Part shown: positions 3,197-60,547 of the stretch, piece by piece
Numbering within the stretch: the stretch's first letter is position 1
Layout: every line of letters begins with the position of its first letter
Origin: Escherichia coli
GTDB taxonomy: Bacteria; Pseudomonadota; Gammaproteobacteria; Enterobacterales; Enterobacteriaceae
Reading direction: 5' to 3' (one strand)
NCBI RefSeq assembly: GCF_022846255.1
Contig: NZ_AP025682.1
DNA: 64,000 nt
Notes under the pieces: generated by a model
Database searches by the model: none
What the model saw: only the letters and a program-made list of their open reading frames with translations
Told to the model about the DNA's origin: nothing
Position numbers and translations under genes: made by a program

Positions 3197-3691
3197 ATGG
3201 TTACTTTCCACACCAATCACGGCGATATTGTCATCAAAACTTTTGACGATAAAGCACCTGAAACAGTTAAAAACTTCCTGGACTACTGCCGCGAAGGTTT
3301 TTACAACAACACCATTTTCCACCGTGTAATCAACGGCTTTATGATTCAGGGCGGCGGTTTTGAGCCGGGCATGAAACAAAAAACCACCAAAGACCCGATC
3401 AAAAACGAAGCCAATAACGGTCTGAAAAATACCCGTGGTACGCTGGCAATGGCCCGTACTCAGGCACCGCACTCTGCAACTGCACAGTTCTTCATCAACG
3501 TGGTTGATAACGACTTCCTGAACTTCTCTGGCGAAAGCCTGCAAGGTTGGGGTTACTGCGTGTTTGCTGAAGTGGTTGAAGGCATGGACGTGGTAGACAA
3601 AATCAAAGGTGTTGCAACCGGTCGTAGCGGTATGCACCAGGACGTGCCAAAAGAAGACGTTATCATTGAAAGCGTGACCGTTAGCGAGTAA
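3197..3691 (+). CDS. ppiB: Peptidyl-prolyl cis-trans isomerase B (cyclophilin)
   Basis: 164 aa [27 protein letters not shown]... cyclophilin fold. Confidence 0.97.
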
Positions 3692-6123: not shown

Positions 6124-6309
6124 GCCGGATGCGGCGTGAACGCCTTATCCGGCCTACCGTTCCAACACCGCCTGTAGGCCTGATAAGATGCGCCAGCATC
6201 GCATCAGGCATGGTGTGCCGATTGCCGCATGCGGCGTGAACGCCTTATCCGGCCTACCGTTCCAACACCGACTGTAGGCCTGATAAGACGCGCCAGCATC
6301 GCATCAGGC
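6124..6309. repeat. REP/BIME cluster; two tandem ~100 bp units
   Basis: gccggatgcggcgtgaacgccttatccggcctac and its inverted partner gtaggcctgataaga...gcatcaggc occur twice in tandem. Confidence 0.8.
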
Positions 6310-7232: not shown

Positions 7233-8044
7233 GGTTTCCCTTGTAATAATTGTTGGCCAAGCCAGAACCCCAGCAGCGTATCGGCCCCTGACGTATGCCC
7301 CAGCGCCAGCAGCGAATCGATCGCCGCTGCGGTACGTTTCGGGCAACTCAGAGCATGAACAAAGTGCAGGAGTGGCGAGGCGAAATATCCTTGCGCGGCA
7401 TAACGTAAATAACTGACGCTCACCGCAGTGGTAACGAGTTGAAGATTGTCGGAACAGGCAAAAAACGGGCGACCGGAGCGCGCATCTAAAGCACCATAAT
7501 ACCAGGCCGCCAGCAGCATTCCGCTCAGCGTGTCATCATGACTTGGCGTTAATCCGGGGCCTTTACCCAGCCAGTGCCGCCAGTCGGTCTTAACGCCATT
7601 GAGCGCGGCCTGAAAACAGTGACGAAACTGGCGTAATTCAGCAGGCAGCGGATCGCTTGCCGCCAATGCCAGTGGCCCGAAAAGCCCGGTTTCCTCCGCG
7701 CGTTGCATCCATGCAACGGCAAGCGGTTGAGGATGCGCAGGCGGCGTAATACGTAGCAAACAATAACGCTGTGGCTGTTTAACCGTGAAACGCCCGAGAC
7801 GAATCCCTTGTGCCACAACCTGTGGTCGTTCATTGCCGCATAATCCACCGCATAACGCATCGAATTGCGCGCGGCGAAGCACCCATCCGCCGGGGCCGAA
7901 ACCACTCCCCTGACGATGCAGCGTTAACAGTTCGCCGCTTTCCGTCATCAGGTTAATCGCCCGCCGCCACACTCCCGCTAACCGCCAGGACTGGCGATAA
8001 TTCGGTGCGCTACGGCTGGCAAGTAGAGGATGGATGATCGTCAT
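7229..8044 (-). CDS. ylbF: YlbF, DUF2877 protein of the fdrA-ylbE-ylbF-ybcF operon
   Basis: [20 protein letters not shown]..., 271 aa; ATG at 8042-8044; stop overlaps the ybcF start. Confidence 0.85.
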
Positions 8045-8054
8045 TGTGCGTTCC

Positions 8055-9314
8055 TCAACCAATCCCCATGCTTTCAGCCAGTGCTTCCAGCGCCTGTTCA
8101 AAGCACGCCAGCGGTGCCCGCACGGTGCCTGCGCCAATCTGCCCGATCCCCGCCTCTTTATGGGCGATACCGGTATTGATGAGTGGCGTAATGCCGGTTT
8201 CTACCACGCGACGAATGTCCAGCCCCAGGCACGCCCCCTGGAAATCCCAGCCGGGGATCTGCAATTGCATATTGCGTTCAAGGTAAATTTCCGCCATCTC
8301 TTCAGATACCGCTCTGGCCGCTTCCATGCCACCCGCACCGACAAAGCGCGTTACGCCAGGCGCTGCGATCATTGCCGCACCTCCGATACCAAAGGTTTCG
8401 GTAATCGCGCTATCGCCCATATCCGGGTTCGCCTGCTCCTGCGAGAAGCCGGTGAAAAACAGACCTTGCGGAGTGTTTACAGGCGCAGTAAACCAGCGTT
8501 CACCCAGCCCGCTTACCCGAATCCCGAACATATTGCCGTTGCGGGTCATAGCCGTAACGATGCTGCCTGCGCGGATCATCGCGCCTGCATCCATCGCCGC
8601 CTTGCAGTAGGCCATCGCGAGATTGAGGAAGAACTGATCGGTCACGCTGAGGAAATCCATCACTTCGGCGATGTGCTGTTTATCATGATCGAGGCGAGCA
8701 ATTTGTGGGGCCAGCGCACGCATTAACAGTGCAGAGGAAGCAATATTGCGTTGATGGAACTCATCGCCCATGGTAATGCCCTGCGCCATCATTGCCGTGA
8801 GATCGATACCGCGCTCCATGCGCCCCAGCGCCGCGCTTAATACTGGCATTAACACATCGCGCATCCAGCGATGGCGAGTCAGGACATCTTCGCCGTAAGC
8901 GCCAAAACGCATCACTTTGCCGATACCTTCGTTGAGGTTGCAGTACGCCCGGTTGCCGTCGGTCACGTTCTCGACCACCAGCATCGGCATACTGGCAGAA
9001 GTAATGCCACCCATTGGCCCGACGGCATTCACATGGTGACAAGGAATGAAGTTCACTTCCCCCTGCTCCAGTATTGCCAGCGCCTGCGCTTCATCTTTCG
9101 CCCAGCCTTCGAACAGACATGCGCCCACGCACGCCCCTTTCATGGGTCCGGTCATCTCCTGCCAGCGCATTGGCGGCCCGGCGTGAAGCAGTGTTTTGCC
9201 CTTGTTTAGTTCGCTGATAAGTGAAGAAGCCGGTTGCACATCCAGCCAGTGTGGACGAGCGCGACGAATTTGTTCGATAACCGCAGCATTGGCTTGCGCC
9301 ACTGATGTAAACAT
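8055..9314 (-). CDS. ylbE: YlbE, DUF1116 protein; intact 419 aa
   Basis: Uninterrupted 419 aa ORF between fdrA and ylbF. Confidence 0.85.
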
Positions 9315-14410: not shown

Positions 14411-14452
14411 GTCATACCACTCGCCTGATTATTTTTAGCTATGTTGGATTTT

Positions 14453-14479
14453 GCCACGGTTTATACCGTGGCTTTTTTT
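14453..14479 (+). terminator. Rho-independent terminator of the allDCE operon
   Basis: gccacggt-ttat-accgtggc hairpin followed by TTTTTTT. Confidence 0.55.
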
Positions 14480-14494
14480 GTAGTCAATTCAGGT

Positions 14495-27466: not shown

Positions 27467-27668
27467 GCCGGATGCGGCGTGAACGCCTTATCCAGCCTAC
27501 AGGTGAGTGCTGTTTCGTAGGCATGATAAGACGCGCCTGCGTCGCATCTGGCATCGGCGCACAACTGCCAGATGCGGCGTAAACGCCTTATCCGGCCTAC
27601 ACAATCTTGCAAAATCAATATATTGCTCGATCCTCGTAGGCCTGATAAGCGAAGCGCATCAGGCAATC
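27467..27668. repeat. REP/BIME cluster
   Basis: Several gccggatgcggcgt(g/a)aacgccttatccggcctac-type palindromic units in alternating orientation. Confidence 0.8.
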
Positions 27669-33113: not shown

Positions 33114-33262
33114 TTGTAGGCCTGATAAGACGCGCCAGCGTCGCATCAGGCATCCGCACATAGCCGCCGGATGCGGCGTGAACGCCTTATCCGGCCTACC
33201 AAACCGTGCTAATTCAATACATTGCAGGTGCCATGTAGGTCTGATTAGACGCATCAGGCATC
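33114..33262. repeat. REP/BIME cluster
   Basis: gtaggcctgataagacgcgccagcgtcgcatcaggc and gccggatgcggcgtgaacgccttatccggcctac units. Confidence 0.8.
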
Positions 33263-41774: not shown

Positions 41775-44279
41775 ATGTCACAAACTATCGACCTGACCCT
41801 GGACGGCCTATCCTGCGGTCACTGCGTTAAACGCGTGAAAGAAAGTCTCGAACAGCGCCCGGATGTTGAACAGGCGGATGTGTCTATCACTGAAGCGCAC
41901 GTTACCGGGACTGCCAGTGCAGAACAGCTGATCGAAACCATCAAACAAGCGGGTTATGACGCATCTGTAAGCCACCCAAAGGCTAAACCGCTGGCGGAGT
42001 CATCAATCCCGTCGGAAGCACTGACAGCGGTTTCTGAGGCGCTTCCGGCAGCGACCGCCGATGACGATGACAGCCAGCAGTTGCTGCTGAGCGGCATGAG
42101 CTGCGCCAGCTGTGTCACCCGCGTACAAAATGCGTTGCAAAGCGTACCGGGCGTCACTCAGGCACGGGTAAACCTGGCGGAGCGTACTGCGCTGGTGATG
42201 GGCAGTGCCTCCCCACAAGATTTAGTGCAGGCGGTGGAAAAAGCGGGCTACGGCGCGGAAGCGATTGAAGATGACGCTAAACGCCGCGAGCGCCAGCAAG
42301 AAACCGCCGTCGCTACGATGAAGCGCTTCCGCTGGCAGGCAATTGTCGCGCTGGCGGTGGGTATCCCGGTGATGGTCTGGGGGATGATCGGCGATAACAT
42401 GATGGTCACCGCTGACAACCGCAGCCTGTGGTTAGTTATCGGCCTGATAACCCTGGCGGTAATGGTTTTCGCCGGCGGGCATTTTTACCGCAGCGCATGG
42501 AAAAGCCTGCTGAACGGTGCGGCGACGATGGATACGCTGGTGGCGCTGGGAACGGGTGTTGCGTGGCTCTATTCGATGAGCGTCAACCTGTGGCCGCAGT
42601 GGTTCCCGATGGAAGCACGGCATCTTTACTATGAAGCCAGTGCGATGATTATCGGTCTGATTAATCTCGGTCATATGCTGGAAGCGCGCGCACGTCAGCG
42701 TTCTTCAAAGGCGCTGGAGAAATTACTCGATTTAACTCCGCCGACGGCGCGCCTGGTTACTGACGAAGGTGAAAAAAGCGTGCCGCTGGCGGAAGTGCAG
42801 CCAGGTATGTTGCTGCGCCTGACGACCGGCGATCGCGTACCGGTAGATGGTGAGATCACCCAGGGCGAAGCGTGGCTGGATGAAGCGATGCTGACGGGCG
42901 AACCTATACCGCAGCAAAAAGGCGAAGGCGATAGCGTCCATGCCGGGACAGTGGTGCAGGACGGTAGCGTGTTGTTTCGCGCCAGTGCGGTTGGCAGCCA
43001 TACTACGCTGTCGCGGATTATTCGTATGGTGCGCCAGGCCCAGAGCAGTAAGCCAGAAATCGGTCAGCTGGCGGATAAAATCTCAGCCGTATTTGTGCCG
43101 GTAGTGGTGGTGATTGCGCTGATCAGTGCGGCAATCTGGTATTTCTTTGGTCCGGCACCGCAGATTGTCTATACCCTGGTGATTGCCACCACGGTGCTAA
43201 TTATTGCCTGTCCGTGTGCGCTGGGGCTGGCGACGCCGATGTCGATTATTTCGGGCGTCGGGCGGGCGGCTGAGTTTGGCGTGCTGGTACGGGACGCCGA
43301 CGCGCTGCAACGCGCCAGTACGCTCGATACCGTAGTGTTCGATAAAACCGGGACGCTGACCGAAGGGAAGCCGCAGGTTGTCGCAGTAAAAACATTTGCT
43401 GATATTGATGAAGCGCAAGCATTGCGTCTGGCGGCGGCGCTGGAGCAAGGTTCCAGCCACCCTCTGGCACGGGCGATCCTCGATAAAGCAGGTGATATGC
43501 AGCTACCGCAGGTCAACGGTTTCCGCACATTGCGCGGGCTGGGCGTGAGCGGTGAAGCTGAAGGTCATGCGTTATTGCTGGGCAATCAGGCGCTGTTAAA
43601 TGACCAACAGGTCGATACCAAAGCAATTGAAGCAGATATTTCAGCTCAGGCATCGCAAGGGGCAACGCCTGTGCTGCTGGCGGTTGACGGGAAAGCGGTA
43701 GCCCTGCTGGCTGTACGCGATCCGTTGCGTAGTGATAGCGTGGCGGCGCTGCAACGCCTGCATAAAGCGGGATATCGCCTGGTGATGCTAACCGGGGATA
43801 ACCCGACCACCGCCAATGCGATCGCTAAAGAAGCAGGGATTGATGAGGTGATAGCCGGCGTGCTGCCGGACGGTAAAGCCGAAGCGATCAAACGTCTGCA
43901 AAGTGAAGGACGTCAGGTAGCAATGGTGGGCGACGGCATTAACGATGCGCCAGCGCTGGCTCAGGCGGATGTCGGTATTGCGATGGGTGGCGGCAGTGAT
44001 GTTGCCATTGAAACCGCGGCGATTACCCTGATGCGCCATAGCCTGATGGGTGTTGCGGATGCGCTCGCAATTTCCCGCGCAACGCTGCGCAACATGAAGC
44101 AGAACCTGCTCGGTGCGTTTATCTACAACAGTATCGGTATTCCGGTCGCCGCCGGTATTTTGTGGCCGTTCACCGGTACGCTGCTTAACCCGGTGGTTGC
44201 CGGAGCGGCAATGGCGCTCTCGTCGATTACCGTAGTGAGTAACGCCAACCGATTGCTGCGGTTTAAACCGAAGGAATGA
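41775..44279 (+). CDS. copA: Cu(I)-exporting P1B-type ATPase
   Basis: 834 aa with two N-terminal GxxCxxC metal-binding domains, CPC, DKTGT and GDGINDAP motifs. Confidence 0.97.
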
Positions 44280-44707
44280 TTGGTATTTACTTAATGCGTT
44301 TGTGAGATCCAGTTCTTGTTGCGCTCCTTTTATGAGTAATGCCATATAAAGTGACTGGCGCAAGGAGCGCGCAGGGGGCGGCCAATCGCCGCCGCCCCCT
44401 GCACCCCCGGGCTCTGGCGAACAAAATCGCCGCTGCGCGGTACCCTCGGCTTATCCCTTGCGGCTACCGGGTCGGGCGCGAGGTAACATCCCTGTAAAAC
44501 GCGCCCTCAGCCCACATCCATGTGGGCTGCCCCGGCCTTCAGGGAACGCCTCGGCGATTTTGACGCCACCAACACCCGTGCAGTCTTTCGTTTCAAAGCA
44601 AAAACAATTTTTCGATCATATTTAAGCTACCACTGAACAAGCCTCATAACTCCATTTGCGCCATCCCTCCCCGCGCGCTAGCATGATATTTCACAAAGGG
44701 AGGTCGT

Positions 44708-45502
44708 ATGGATCTGTTGTACCGGGTAAAAACGCTTTGGGCCGCGCTGCGCGGTAATCATTACACCTGGCCTGCTATCGATATCTCTCTTCCCGGCAAT
44801 CGCCATTTTCATCTGATTGGCAGTATTCATATGGGCAGCCACGATATGGCTCCCCTGCCCACCCGTTTGCTCAAAAAGCTCAAAAACGCCGATGCGCTGA
44901 TCGTCGAGGCGGATGTTTCCACCAGCGATACGCCTTTTGCTAATTTGCCTGCCTGCGAGGCGCTGGAAGAGCGCATTAGCGAGGAGCAATTACAAAACCT
45001 GCAGCACATTAGCCAGGAGATGGGCATTTCTCCGTCGCTCTTTTCTACCCAACCGCTGTGGCAAATCGCGATGGTTCTTCAGGCGACGCAGGCGCAAAAA
45101 CTGGGGCTGCGGGCAGAATACGGTATCGATTACCAGCTATTGCAGGCGGCGAAGCAACAACATAAACCCGTGATTGAACTGGAAGGGGCAGAAAACCAGA
45201 TTGCCATGTTGCTCCAGCTCCCTGACAACGGACTGGCGCTGCTGGACGATACGCTGACCCACTGGCACACCAATGCACGGTTGCTGCAACAAATGATGAG
45301 CTGGTGGCTGAATGCGCCGCCGCAAAATAATGAAATAACGCTGCCTAATACGTTCAGTCAGTCGCTGTACGATGTGCTGATGCATCAGCGAAATCTCGCC
45401 TGGCGGGACAAATTATGCGCCATGCCGCCGGGGCGCTATGTGGTCGCAGTCGGTGCACTACACCTGTATGGAGAAGGGAATTTGCCGCAGATGTTGCGCT
45501 AA
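44708..45502 (+). CDS. ybaP: TraB-family protein YbaP
   Basis: 264 aa MDLLYRVKTLWAALRGNHYTWPAIDISLPGN...; strong RBS aagggagg. Confidence 0.9.
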   Translation: MDLLYRVKTLWAALRGNHYTWPAIDISLPGNRHFHLIGSIHMGSHDMAPLPTRLLKKLKNADALIVEADVSTSDTPFANLPACEALEERISEEQLQNLQHISQEMGISPSLFSTQPLWQIAMVLQATQAQKLGLRAEYGIDYQLLQAAKQQHKPVIELEGAENQIAMLLQLPDNGLALLDDTLTHWHTNARLLQQMMSWWLNAPPQNNEITLPNTFSQSLYDVLMHQRNLAWRDKLCAMPPGRYVVAVGALHLYGEGNLPQMLR

Positions 45503-45584
45503 AAAAATGGCCAATATCGCTATTGGCCCGTCAAAGAGGAATTTCATATTTTTATTATTATGCCGTCACTTTAAGCGACGGTGT
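45501..45584 (-). ncRNA. chiX: ChiX (MicM/SroB) small regulatory RNA
   Basis: Minus-strand sequence acaccgtcgcttaaagtgacgg...ttgacgggccaatagcgatattggccattttttt matches the remembered ChiX sequence, including the terminator hairpin and U-tail, in the ybaP-ybaK spacer. Confidence 0.8.
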
Positions 45585-58615: not shown

Positions 58616-60547
58616 TCAAATGGGGCGGATACTGTCTTCATCCAGCTCCGCATCGAAGAACCGACGCAGGGTCTGAATATTATTATCCGCAATAATGGAC
58701 TCGCGCGCCTGCGCAAGTTTTTCTTCGTATATCGCCTGACGCCATTCCAGCGGCGTACGCACCGCGGGATTATCATCTTCAACGATAGTCAGTTCAACCG
58801 TTGAACCTTTTAACGTGCTCAACGCTTCAGCCAGTTTTTGCTGTGCACCGCGGTTGTTCAAATGCCGCTGAGAGGAGCGCAAATGCAGACATACTGCGTT
58901 GTCGCTCTCCTCTTTCCAGGCATTTAACGCCACCTGTTCGACCAGTTTTGGTAGCGAAAGTTGACTCACCTGTGCCGCCCACGGGTCGCGCTCAATGGCT
59001 TCTGCCGCCAGCTTCGCCGCCAGTTCCGGCGTTTTTTCATGTTCCAGCGCTTTTTTCAGCGCCTTCGGCGTGGCGACCACTTCTTTTTGCTGCATCACTG
59101 GAGTGGTCGCCTTCCAGCGATACGCTTCTTTTTTAGCTGGCGCTTTTTCCAGCGCCGATGGCACCGGGCGCGCCTGAACACGATCGGTGACCGAAGCCAG
59201 TCTTTCCAGCGCAGCGTTATTCACCGGCCGCGCGCGGGTAGCGGCTGCCGGTTCACTCTTTTTTGCTTTGGTTGCTCCCTGCACGCGCTGCAACTGCTGG
59301 CGCGCCGCCAGCACCTGGCTGGTGGTTTCCGGGAGCGGTACAGTCGGTGCCTGCTGCGGCGCTGATTGCGGTTGCGGCGGCACCTGTGTTGGCGTCATTA
59401 CTGCCGTTGGCGCGACGGGCGCAAAGGACTGGCGTGGCACTTCTGGCTCAGGCAGCGGCATACGCGGATGGAACGCCAGCGCGCGAAGCAGCGTCATCTC
59501 AACGCCCATACGGCGGTCTGGCGCATACGGTAATTCTTTGCGACCAATCAACAGCGTCTGATAGTAAAGCTGAATATCCGTCGGCGGTATGGTGCGCGCC
59601 AGTTCACGCATCCGCAGCTCGATGGCAGCCATATCGTTGCCAAGTGCAGCAGGCGAAAGTTGTACCATCGCAATACGATGCAACAGACCGAGCATTTCCA
59701 CCAGCAACGCTTCCCACTCGATACCACGGGCAGCGGCTTCATTAATCAGCGCCATTACGCGCTCGCCGTTGGCCTCGACCATCGCTTCAACCAGCGACAG
59801 CGCCTGATCATCGTCAAGCGTACCCAGCATCGCACTGACCGCCTGGGTTGAAACCTGGCCGTCACCGCTGGCAATCGCCTGGTCGGTCAGACTTAAGGCA
59901 TCTCGCAGGCTGCCTTCAGCGGCGCGTGCCAACAATTGCAGCGCCCGCGGCTCGTGAGCGATATGTTCTTCGTTGAGGATGTGCTCAAGCTGATGGCGAA
60001 TTTGCTCGACATCCAGCGCCTTGAGATGAAATTGCAGACAGCGTGACAAAATCGTCACCGGCAATTTCTGCGGATCGGTCGTCGCCAGCAAAAACTTAAC
60101 GTGCTCTGGCGGCTCTTCAAGGGTTTTTAACAGTGCGTTAAAGCTGTGGCGCGACAGCATATGCACTTCGTCGATCAGATAAACTTTGAAACGACCACGC
60201 GCCGGAGCGTACTGGACGTTATCCAGCAGGTCGCGAGTGTCTTCAACTTTAGTGCGCGAGGCGGCGTCGATTTCAATCAGATCGACAAAGCGCCCCTGCT
60301 CGATTTCACGACAGTTATCGCACACGCCGCACGGCGTCGCGGTAATGCCGGTTTCGCAGTTTAGCCCCTTCGCCAGCAGTCGGGCGATAGAGGTTTTTCC
60401 GACGCCACGGGTACCGGAAAAAAGATAAGCATGATGAATACGCCCTAACGACAAGCCGTTCGCCAGTGCGGTCAGCACATGTTCCTGGCCGACGACGTCA
60501 GCAAAGGTTTGTGGGCGCCATTTTCGGGCTAAGACCTGATAACTCAT
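58616..60547 (-). CDS. dnaX: DNA polymerase III subunits tau and gamma
   Basis: MSYQVLARKWRPQTFADVVGQEHV... AAA+ clamp-loader subunit; ATG at 60545-60547. Confidence 0.95.
   Translation of the reverse strand: MSYQVLARKWRPQTFADVVGQEHVLTALANGLSLGRIHHAYLFSGTRGVGKTSIARLLAKGLNCETGITATPCGVCDNCREIEQGRFVDLIEIDAASRTKVEDTRDLLDNVQYAPARGRFKVYLIDEVHMLSRHSFNALLKTLEEPPEHVKFLLATTDPQKLPVTILSRCLQFHLKALDVEQIRHQLEHILNEEHIAHEPRALQLLARAAEGSLRDALSLTDQAIASGDGQVSTQAVSAMLGTLDDDQALSLVEAMVEANGERVMALINEAAARGIEWEALLVEMLGLLHRIAMVQLSPAALGNDMAAIELRMRELARTIPPTDIQLYYQTLLIGRKELPYAPDRRMGVEMTLLRALAFHPRMPLPEPEVPRQSFAPVAPTAVMTPTQVPPQPQSAPQQAPTVPLPETTSQVLAARQQLQRVQGATKAKKSEPAAATRARPVNNAALERLASVTDRVQARPVPSALEKAPAKKEAYRWKATTPVMQQKEVVATPKALKKALEHEKTPELAAKLAAEAIERDPWAAQVSQLSLPKLVEQVALNAWKEESDNAVCLHLRSSQRHLNNRGAQQKLAEALSTLKGSTVELTIVEDDNPAVRTPLEWRQAIYEEKLAQARESIIADNNIQTLRRFFDAELDEDSIRPI
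59224..59264 (-). promoter_or_regulatory. dnaX programmed -1 ribosomal frameshift site (slippery heptamer plus downstream stem-loop)
   Basis: mRNA-sense A AAA AAG (plus-strand cttttttg at 59258-59264) at about codon 428, followed in the mRNA by a GC-rich hairpin (59224-59250) and a -1 frame stop after KKE. Confidence 0.8.

Follow-up and report, generated by a model that had tools for sequence, protein, structure and literature searches.

A TRIP1 Repeat in the copA–ybaP Spacer of Escherichia coli and Its Modest Link to the TwoAYGGAY RNAs

The copA–ybaP Spacer and Its Published Repeat

What occupies the spacer between copA and ybaP in an Escherichia coli genome that does not carry ybaQ there, and to what does it owe its many inverted repeats? 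In the window (the whole stretch of DNA that was analysed, 64 kb), copA (41775-44279) and ybaP (44708-45502) both lie on the plus strand and are separated by 428 bp (44280-44707). The initial annotation, considering the gene order of K-12, had expected ybaQ in this spacer; it reported a GC-rich tract instead and proposed that this was a structured noncoding RNA, a distinct repeat family or the scar of a rearrangement that removed ybaQ. The observations behind these proposals were confirmed. MG1655 does have REP units and ybaQ between ybaP and copA. The G+C content of the tract was 0.63-0.74 over 44350-44600, compared with 0.39-0.43 in the flanks on both sides, and all four inverted repeats that had been listed were found at their places (table 1). 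No open reading frame (ORF) of at least 60 aa was wholly contained in the spacer, where the biggest internal ORFs were 45-55 aa; an ORF of 191 aa antisense of copA (43788-44363, minus strand) merely enters its edge. The tract was also correctly separated from the REP repeats, since the REP units of K-12 matched other sites in the window but never this one.

When the window was aligned with the copA–ybaP region of K-12, homology ended at the copA stop codon (44277) and restarted at 44636, 72 bp upstream of the ybaP start, and K-12 did not have the same sequence between these points. YbaQ gave no tblastn match anywhere in the 64-kb window. The allele of the window was carried by 346 of 5426 complete E. 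coli genomes. The site is polymorphic, with three kinds of alleles: a toxin gene together with ybaQ, an orphan ybaQ with REPs, and TRIP1e. Most E. coli genomes have ybaQ at this site with a variable number of REP units, and the toxin gene found beside it in some of them is of the RelE/ParE family. The entire intergenic cassette differs between these alleles, and the proposed scar of a ybaQ loss was not demonstrated. A remnant of ybaQ or another gene in the spacer was rejected on the missing YbaQ match and on the ORF sizes given above. A small ORF behind the Shine-Dalgarno-like AAGGAG of the minus strand was rejected too: where an ATG follows, as in several copies, the peptides are 3-27 aa long and unrelated, and in the window and TRIP1d copies this ATG is missing.

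The GC-rich, hairpin-dense tract is, by sequence and position, a copy of the published repeat TRIP1e. The TRIP1 family was described by Rudd (1999) and re-surveyed by Li et al. (2024; PMC10888264), who recognized five types (TRIP1a-e), each with its own locus. The fifth, TRIP1e, was reported from 232 of 6725 genomes, at a site 38 bp past the copA stop and 124 bp ahead of the ybaP start (PMC10888264). Transferred to the window, this position is 44318-44583, an exact match to the present element, and it is bracketed by the homology that we measured (44314-44584). BLAST against the reference copies of TRIP1a, TRIP1b and TRIP1c from K-12 gave matches over at least 80% of their length. Identity was 94.9% over 272 bp with K-12 TRIP1a (98.6% in the core) and 88.5-93% with other copies. 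The 62-65% G+C and very stable fold that characterize TRIP1 were found as well (0.63-0.74 across the core; z = -6.4, see below), and the ensemble energy of the minus strand was -153.2 kcal/mol, compared with -149.6 kcal/mol in the published work. In membership of the sequence family (91-95% identity over about 270 bp), in locus and in G+C range, the element resembles TRIP1a-e throughout, and as to identity it does not differ from the published TRIP1e. Of the initial proposals, a distinct repeat family was therefore the right one.

When the GC-rich part was searched by megablast in the 5426 complete E. coli genomes, virtually every genome had it, with 1-8 places in each (median 3); no annotation lay beneath any match. 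The initial annotation had allowed for a common annotated repeat, and the repeat is indeed common and published, but it is unannotated in RefSeq. The three copies of K-12 are all at loci other than copA–ybaP. The copy sites in E. coli include aqpZ–lysO, dusC–yohP and putP–efeU, the last with an internally deleted form. At copA–ybaP, TRIP1e is found in about 3-6% of the strains, while most carry ybaQ and REPs. A second TRIP1 copy was not found in the window with the family model (R1, filters off). The score of this model at the core (172.8 bits) is uninformative, since the window sequence is in its seed alignment, and only the absence of other copies in the window is informative.

What the element is, where it sits and how stably its RNA is predicted to fold are thus already on record (2024), and the family has been known since 1999. 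TRIP1 elements are known substrates for megabase inversions, and beyond this mediation of chromosomal inversions no function was given by Li et al. (2024; PMC10888264). The wider enterobacterial range, the covariation, the likeness to TwoAYGGAY and the two-armed form described below are absent from the published work, which is limited to E. coli. With REP/BIME (Rfam naRNA4) and other intergenic repeats of E. coli, TRIP1 shares an intergenic position after stop codons, high G+C content, palindromes and polymorphism between strains. However, a TRIP1 unit has about seven times the length of a REP and its fold is branched; a genome has 1-8 places with TRIP1 rather than hundreds, and the sequence is unrelated; a REP/BIME identity was rejected on this lack of sequence similarity. 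Other Rfam families gave only matches at chance level.

A Fold Kept on the Minus Strand

The minus strand of the element was predicted to fold at -150.4 kcal/mol (z = -6.4) and the plus strand at -129 kcal/mol (z = -4.7), and none of 200 shuffles was as stable in either case. RNAalifold, applied in the minus-strand sense to a MAFFT alignment of 36 nonredundant copies, gave 49 pairs, 25 of which had changed on both sides. For a 77-pair structure on the MAFFT alignment, 87% of the cells were paired and 40 pairs had changed on both sides, compared with 27.9 in column shuffles (0 of 500 reached the observed number) and 19-24 with slid partners; the covariation score of this structure was 0.268, versus 0.07-0.09 in the controls. 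A covariance model of the 146-nt core found 116 copies in the fetched loci. On the alignment fitted by this model, 93% of the cells were paired, and both sides had changed in 37 of 48 pairs, against 11-13 with slid partners. Compensation can also be seen by eye: where E. coli has the hairpin CAGCCCACAU...AUGUGGGCUG, Klebsiella has CCCGCAU...AUGCGGG and Citrobacter has CCAGCAU...AUGCUGG, all with one and the same loop.

The two senses were not equivalent. The alifold energy was -61 kcal/mol in the minus-strand sense and -39 kcal/mol in the other, and G-U was found at 25 pair positions (106 cells) while A-C was found at 12 (46 cells). These better energies, the excess of G-U over A-C and the strand of the Rfam match (see below) all point to the minus strand as the RNA sense. 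Comparison of the copies shows that the TRIP1 sequence is constrained to keep one predicted fold, read on the minus strand of the window. The initially proposed structured noncoding RNA is plausible, given the compensatory changes and the minus-strand bias, but no promoter or terminator was found in the spacer of the window.

The conserved fold consists of a closing stem, a three-way junction with two hairpins (loops AUGGAU and A-N-GGA-Y) and then two further hairpins. Positions of its parts are given in table 1, and most of them have their own comparative support. In the closing stem P1, 96% of the cells of the MAFFT alignment were paired and four of eight pairs had changed on both sides, with which the model-aligned copies agree. 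The stem of P3 covaries (A-U, G-C and U-A variants) around a constant loop. The CA-N-GGA-Y-G of the P4 loop was conserved in copies that had not been selected on the loop, including the second arms of other genera. In P5, CCGC/GCGG alternates with UUGC/GCAA and CCAC/GUGG, and in the helix of the GC-rich hairpin on the 3' side of the core 13 of 18 pairs had changed on both sides. In the minimum-energy fold of the single E. coli sequence, P1 and the outer stem form one long closing helix. A 10-bp P1 (AAAAUCGCCG/CGGCGAUUUU), suggested by the E. coli sequence alone, was rejected, as covariation favours an 8-bp P1 with a separate CCGC/GCGG hairpin.

Table 1. Features of the copA–ybaP spacer in window coordinates (sequences of stems and loops in the minus-strand RNA sense)
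Feature	Position	Strand	Description
Allele-specific cassette	44280-44635		Takes the place of 725 bp of K-12 (REPs and ybaQ), from the copA stop to the ybaP promoter region
TRIP1e repeat unit	44318-44583	-	Homology to other TRIP1 copies measured over 44314-44584, about 271 bp
Inverted repeat I7	44321-44329 with 44362-44370		9 nt, 100% complementary
Inverted repeat I3	44371-44382 with 44391-44402		12 nt, 100% complementary
Inverted repeat I5	44508-44517 with 44520-44529		10 nt, 100% complementary
Inverted repeat I1	44422-44437 with 44547-44562		16 nt, 88% complementary
Terminal hairpin	44321-44370	-	GCGCUCCUU...AAGGAGCGC with variable loop; stem conserved in E. coli and Klebsiella copies
GC-rich hairpin 3' of core	44371-44402	-	Perfect 12-bp stem, 8-nt loop
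Core TwoAYGGAY-like domain	44420-44565	-	Closing stem P1, irregular P2, three-way junction with P3 and P4, side hairpin P5
Closing stem P1, 3' strand	44422-44429	-	RNA CGAUUUUG; partner 44555-44562
Small hairpin P5	44430-44440	-	CCGC-GCA-GCGG
Third conserved GGA segment	44450-44457	-	RNA GGGAUAAG, within stem P2; columns nearly invariant in two alignments (A3, A4)
Hairpin P4	44474-44506	-	Stem GGGCGCG/CGCGCCC; loop region UUACAGGGAUGUUA; loop AGGGAU (plus-strand 44488-44493)
Hairpin P3	44508-44529	-	Stem of 9-10 bp; loop AUGGAU (plus-strand ATCCAT, 44516-44521)
Closing stem P1, 5' strand	44555-44562	-	RNA CAAAAUCG; based on inverted repeat I1 and pair counts
AT-rich arm	44585-44635		5' side of the RNA sense strand

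The TRIP1a core of E. albertii and its K-12 orthologue were 95.3% identical, and the adjoining lysO coding sequence 88.8%; the higher similarity of TRIP1a suggests either constraint or homogenisation. Substitutions at paired positions of orthologous copies kept the pairing in three cases and broke it in four in one comparison, and kept it in one and broke it in three in another. With pairing lost roughly as frequently as it is preserved in these few substitutions, the covariation lies mostly between subfamilies. It proves that the fold matters to whatever maintains or spreads the family, which is no proof that each resident copy serves its host.

Relatives in Other Genera and Likeness to the TwoAYGGAY RNAs

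A pattern scan of species-representative genomes, in which the covarying stem positions were tolerated, found 71 loci in Citrobacter, Klebsiella, Enterobacter, Kluyvera, Raoultella, Pluralibacter, Pseudescherichia, Pseudocitrobacter, Mangrovibacter and several Escherichia species. Sequence comparison thus places the TRIP1 family in at least ten enterobacterial genera, across the Enterobacteriaceae. One further match, in a Rhizobium metagenome-assembled genome (L072), had unrelated flanks and was regarded as a chance match. Distant BLAST against plasmid records yielded Klebsiella and Citrobacter copies with 77-86% identity. K. pneumoniae has copies at about 13 places per genome; TRIP1-like copies of Klebsiella are embedded between REP-like units, and some copies carry nested insertions. 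Identity was 86-96% within one genome and 51-79% between genera, a pattern that is that of a repeat amplifying or being homogenised inside lineages.

In Citrobacter, Enterobacter, Pseudescherichia, Kluyvera, Pseudocitrobacter and Mangrovibacter, the family model found beside each copy a second, diverged one at a distance of 68-165 bp on the opposite strand, with the 5' ends of the two copies facing each other. This two-armed form is a dyad of about 600 bp made up of two divergent arms. The complete C. freundii element forms an inverted repeat, whose 255-nt arms are 71% complementary and flank an AT-rich centre of 92 nt. When each arm of the dyads is read outward, fold and GGA loops are both preserved, and G-U positions outnumber A-C positions in both arms. 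Since fold and G-U bias follow the outward sense of each arm, two divergent transcripts fit the dyads better than one DNA strand does. A promoter or terminator was not found in the central spacer of the Citrobacter dyad, and manual inspection of the upstream flanks gave no convincing conserved -35/-10 pair. The TRIP1 copies of E. coli, including that of the window, are single arms. Their AT-rich side (44585-44635 in the window) weakly resembles the corresponding flanks of other copies as well as the central spacers of the dyads, and it may be what remains of such a central spacer from the two-armed form.

Of the known RNA classes, TwoAYGGAY (RF01731) is the one that TRIP1 resembles. Its published description comprises two neighbouring hairpins with AYGGAY loops and a closing P1 stem that is often very long (Weinberg et al. 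2010). TRIP1 and TwoAYGGAY have in common a three-way junction, the long stem that closes it and a pair of adjoining GGA-loop hairpins (CAUGGAUG), and in TRIP1 the closing P1 surrounds the two-hairpin junction, with junction and hairpins supported by covariation; both are multicopy and neither is tied to 5' UTRs. The loop motif of TRIP1 is shared with TwoAYGGAY RNAs of Psychromonas and has been reported in Clostridia. The Rfam model matched the window copy at 44424-44563 on the minus strand with 30.2 bits (E = 0.025), which is below the gathering cutoff of 43, and other E. coli copies scored 30.6-33.1 bits. In contrast, the two copies of Pluralibacter gergoviae reached 51.9 and 46.3 bits, above this cutoff, and they also align with TRIP1 over the full length and score more than 105 bits with the family model. 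The first loop of the window copy, AUGGAU, fits AYGGAY, while the second, AGGGAU, has a purine where Y is expected; the copies of Kluyvera and Pluralibacter have AUGGAU in both loops. TRIP1 differs from TwoAYGGAY in that its second loop is usually A-G/A/C-GGA-Y, in its much higher G+C content, in its extra side hairpin and two 3' hairpins, and in the 30-33 bits of its E. coli copies. No E. coli sequence was found in the portion of the 2010 TwoAYGGAY alignment that was compared. Considering the shared architecture and the Pluralibacter homologues above the cutoff, we regard TRIP1 as a putative GC-rich enterobacterial branch of the TwoAYGGAY class, a branch in which the window copy itself fails the Rfam score. 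Overall, the repeat is a known one, and what is new is a modest connection with an RNA class.

Spread of the Element and Candidate Partners

We consider it rather probable that the TRIP1e copy belongs to a dispersed noncoding repeat that works as a TwoAYGGAY-like single-stranded element, with a minus-strand RNA as its likeliest form and GGA loops as docking sites, and that it came to the locus as a swapped cassette. Under this account, the element would act or spread as a single-stranded molecule, most likely the minus-strand RNA. The comparison of alleles bears on the last part. At aqpZ–lysO (K-12 and an O157 strain) and at dusC–yohP (K-12 and strain M1/5), the repeats have opposite orientations and different AT-rich junctions, and collinear homology restarts only at or next to the flanking stop codons. 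At alx–sstT, the K-12 allele is "empty" but contains another kind of repeat, and the differences extend even into the two final codons of alx. The alternative alleles of four loci differ over the entire spacer, from or beside the stop codons, and a clean empty site was not found at any of the four; hence a target duplication cannot be read. With no clean empty site, no duplication and no terminal repeats, exchange of whole cassettes is the simplest reading, and the copA–ybaP copy would have arrived by replacement of the intergenic cassette through recombination in the flanking genes, without clean insertion.

The main rival to the RNA account is a purely selfish DNA repeat. According to this assumption, TRIP1 is a nonautonomous mobile or recombining repeat, MITE- or REP-like, whose hairpins would be important to a trans-acting enzyme when the DNA is single-stranded and which would have no function for the host; the copA–ybaP copy would be a passenger. 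Much of its distribution agrees with this: the families are multicopy and lineage-specific (with the within-genome and between-genera identities given above), presence and orientation are polymorphic at fixed loci, Citrobacter has a foldback dyad with 255-nt inverted arms and several other genera have dyads, Klebsiella copies sit between REP-like units, some copies have nested insertions, no coding gene travels with the element, and substitutions in place do not clearly preserve pairing. As copies within a genome are more alike than those between genera, the covariation could largely reflect selection on the propagation of a selfish repeat rather than host function. Nevertheless, as alleles differ across the whole spacer, neither an empty site with clean borders nor a target-site duplication nor a terminal repeat can be defined, and 99% of the E. 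coli copies are at five loci, which gives no sign of recent movement. MITEs have terminal inverted repeats, and here the two-armed form has inverted arms (255 nt, 71% complementary), while E. coli TRIP1 has one arm; a recurrent nonsyntenic neighbour protein that could be the partner enzyme of a MITE was not found around 80 copies in the fetched loci. The dyad arms, which each keep fold and GGA loops outward, fit two divergent RNAs better than one DNA strand, and the loop motif shared with Psychromonas and reported in Clostridia also speaks against a purely selfish repeat. We rate this explanation as a possible one that is on balance not favoured.

Other origins received no support. The sole recurrent neighbouring "proteins" were spurious ORFs across the repeat itself, so a conserved neighbouring protein was rejected. 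A phage origin was rejected, with no match. A plasmid-borne parent was rejected likewise: the matching plasmid records were chromosome-sized or chromosome-like records filed as plasmids, all nonmobilizable, and no feature lay beneath the matches save one "uncharacterised protein."

Returning to the reading of TRIP1 as a TwoAYGGAY-like RNA, the GGA loops raise the question of a protein partner. The SELEX consensus of CsrA is RUACARGGAUGU with GGA in a hairpin loop. The CA-N-GGA-Y-G of both conserved hairpin loops matches this binding consensus, and in the window the loop sequences UUACAGGGAUGU and CCACAUGGAUGU agree with it at 11 and 9 of 12 positions, respectively. TRIP1 thereby resembles CsrB and CsrC, with GGA motifs that fit the SELEX consensus in hairpin loops and two sites about 27 nt apart, and one CsrA dimer is reportedly able to bridge about 27 nt between sites. 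McaS is also an sRNA that sequesters CsrA. However, CsrB has many more CsrA sites than the two or three of TRIP1, for which neither a promoter, a terminator nor known regulation was found, nor a peak in the CLIP-seq list of K-12. The two GGA loops would offer a docking site to a dimeric RNA-binding protein, and CsrA appears to be the best candidate for it.

TwoAYGGAY RNAs have been proposed as CsrA-binding sRNAs (Gardner and Eldai 2015), as repeated in a 2021 preprint. CLIP-seq lent no support to CsrA binding by TRIP1 in K-12: the TRIP1 sequence was in no peak of the K-12 CsrA list (Potts et al. 2017, Supplementary Data 1), no peak lay at the TRIP1a and TRIP1c coordinates searched, which as one data set is a weak negative, and dusC and ybjE were marked "No" in all four target columns (Potts et al. 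2017). The more specific proposal would be that the TRIP1 elements are the E. coli members of TwoAYGGAY, are transcribed on the minus strand, bind a CsrA dimer through the GGA loops and descend from a divergently transcribed two-armed element. As a whole we hold this proposal to be doubtful.

A third explanation places the role of the element in cis at the end of the gene, where the GC-rich hairpins would be a barrier to transcription or exonucleases for the copA mRNA, or the edge of the element would provide a promoter for ybaP. Every E. coli copy sits just past a stop codon, and in the window allele copA has no other terminator-like structure, but no U-tract follows any of the hairpins, and a scan of the spacer found neither a sigma-70-like promoter nor an intrinsic terminator on either strand. 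The promoter of ybjE (lysO) in K-12 was given as TTGACG-19-TGTAAT in an RNA-polymerase genomic SELEX study, and these hexamers lie on the outer edge of TRIP1a, reading towards lysO. The window keeps the -35 hexamer TTGACG (44560-44565); however, the position of TGTAAT reads CTTTCG. TRIP1 can face either way with respect to its neighbours, and this varies even within one locus, which argues against a fixed cis-regulatory role; with orientation flipping between strains, no given gene is consistently faced by one order of the hairpins or by the promoter edge. A general cis function of this kind has little to recommend it, and a role at the copA end or as a promoter donor at this locus is unlikely.

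The GGA-loop RNA reading, at the strength given to it above, bears on two families at once. For TRIP1, no function has been put forward in 25 years, and for TwoAYGGAY the CsrA hypothesis of 2015, so far untested, is the only one on offer. RefSeq annotation leaves these structured elements of roughly 270 bp unmarked. If the CsrA proposal were true, TRIP1 would add to the Csr system a dispersed component or target that has been overlooked, and its two-armed ancestor would be the form transcribed from the AT-rich centre in Citrobacter, Enterobacter, Kluyvera and related genera. If TRIP1 and TwoAYGGAY are one class, kept by covariation across the Enterobacteriaceae, K-12, with its three copies, easy genetics and existing Csr tools, would be a tractable system in which the role of TwoAYGGAY RNAs could be tested.

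Arrangement of the fold in other genomes

Outside E. coli, the TRIP1-like element was found to be a dyad, in which two diverged copies of the fold (arms), one on each strand, are separated by an AT-rich centre of 68-165 bp towards which both 5' ends point. The E. coli TRIP1, in contrast, corresponds to one such arm. Besides the Citrobacter freundii dyad listed in the table, paired matches were present at L039, L074, L040, L038, L073, L085, L032, L071, L048, and other loci. The domain was also arranged in tandem or triple: in Raoultella terrigena (L066, 189-594) the search pattern matched twice, at overlapping sites 150 bp apart, and in Mangrovibacter (L022, 860-1660) three covariance-model matches lay on alternating strands.

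In several copies (L025, ~3368-3516; L064, ~8489-8637; L037, ~7676-7825; and L041), the closing stem was disrupted at one common position in its 3' strand. L025 and L064 are interrupted there by ~70-100 bp of inserted sequence (CAAAAUUGCCGGGAGCAAUUUUG... and GC-rich hairpins), which may be another small repeat nested within the TRIP1-like element, and L037 shows a gap. REP-like units (GCCGGGTGGCGGCTGCGCCTTACCCGGCCTAC) flank the Klebsiella pneumoniae copies (L077-L082, L011, and L012) on one or both sides, so these copies sit within REP clusters. Copies nearly identical to those of Klebsiella or E. coli were also found on short contigs of metagenome-assembled genomes of unrelated taxa, namely Desulfacinum (L023), Sporobacter termitidis (L051), and Proteobacteria (L031); these most likely represent enterobacterial contamination of the bins.

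Promoter-like hexamers and Rfam matches

At the outer edge of TRIP1a, the K-12 copy between aqpZ and lysO (ybjE), the hexamers TTGACG...TGTAAT read outward (L008, 2509-2540, minus strand), and published RNA-polymerase genomic SELEX identified them as the constitutive ybjE (lysO) promoter. TRIP1e, the copy in the copA-ybaP spacer of the window, retains TTGACG (44560-44565), with no -10 hexamer after it.

The naRNA4, dnaX, and STnc480 matches were obtained by an Rfam scan of the window at gathering level. The sroB (ChiX) gene lies between ybaP and ybaK, as it does in K-12.

Dyad at L014 and Rfam matches in the window
Feature	Location	Strand	Source or details
TRIP1-like dyad	L014 2395-2996		Citrobacter freundii torD-yeiP spacer; arms 255 nt, 71% complementary
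sRNA sroB (ChiX)	window 45501-45584	-	Rfam, 81.1 bits
naRNA4 (REP/BIME-derived)	window 6177-6254	-	Rfam
naRNA4 (REP/BIME-derived)	window 27520-27597	-	Rfam
naRNA4 (REP/BIME-derived)	window 33119-33196	-	Rfam
dnaX frameshift element	window 59219-59283	-	Rfam
STnc480	window 14417-14483	-	Rfam

Alleles of the copA-ybaP locus

The copA stop codon (44277-44279) is TGA in the window and TAA in K-12, which places the allele boundary exactly at the stop codon. Similarly, the final two alx codons were not the same in the two alx-sstT alleles (L086 and L087). In some E. coli strains (25POL, ESBLEC_HM50; records H103 and H104), ybaQ is accompanied between copA and ybaP by a gene for a RelE/ParE-family toxin. 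Considering this pairing, the ybaQ of K-12 appears to be an orphan antitoxin, and at least three alleles occur at the locus.
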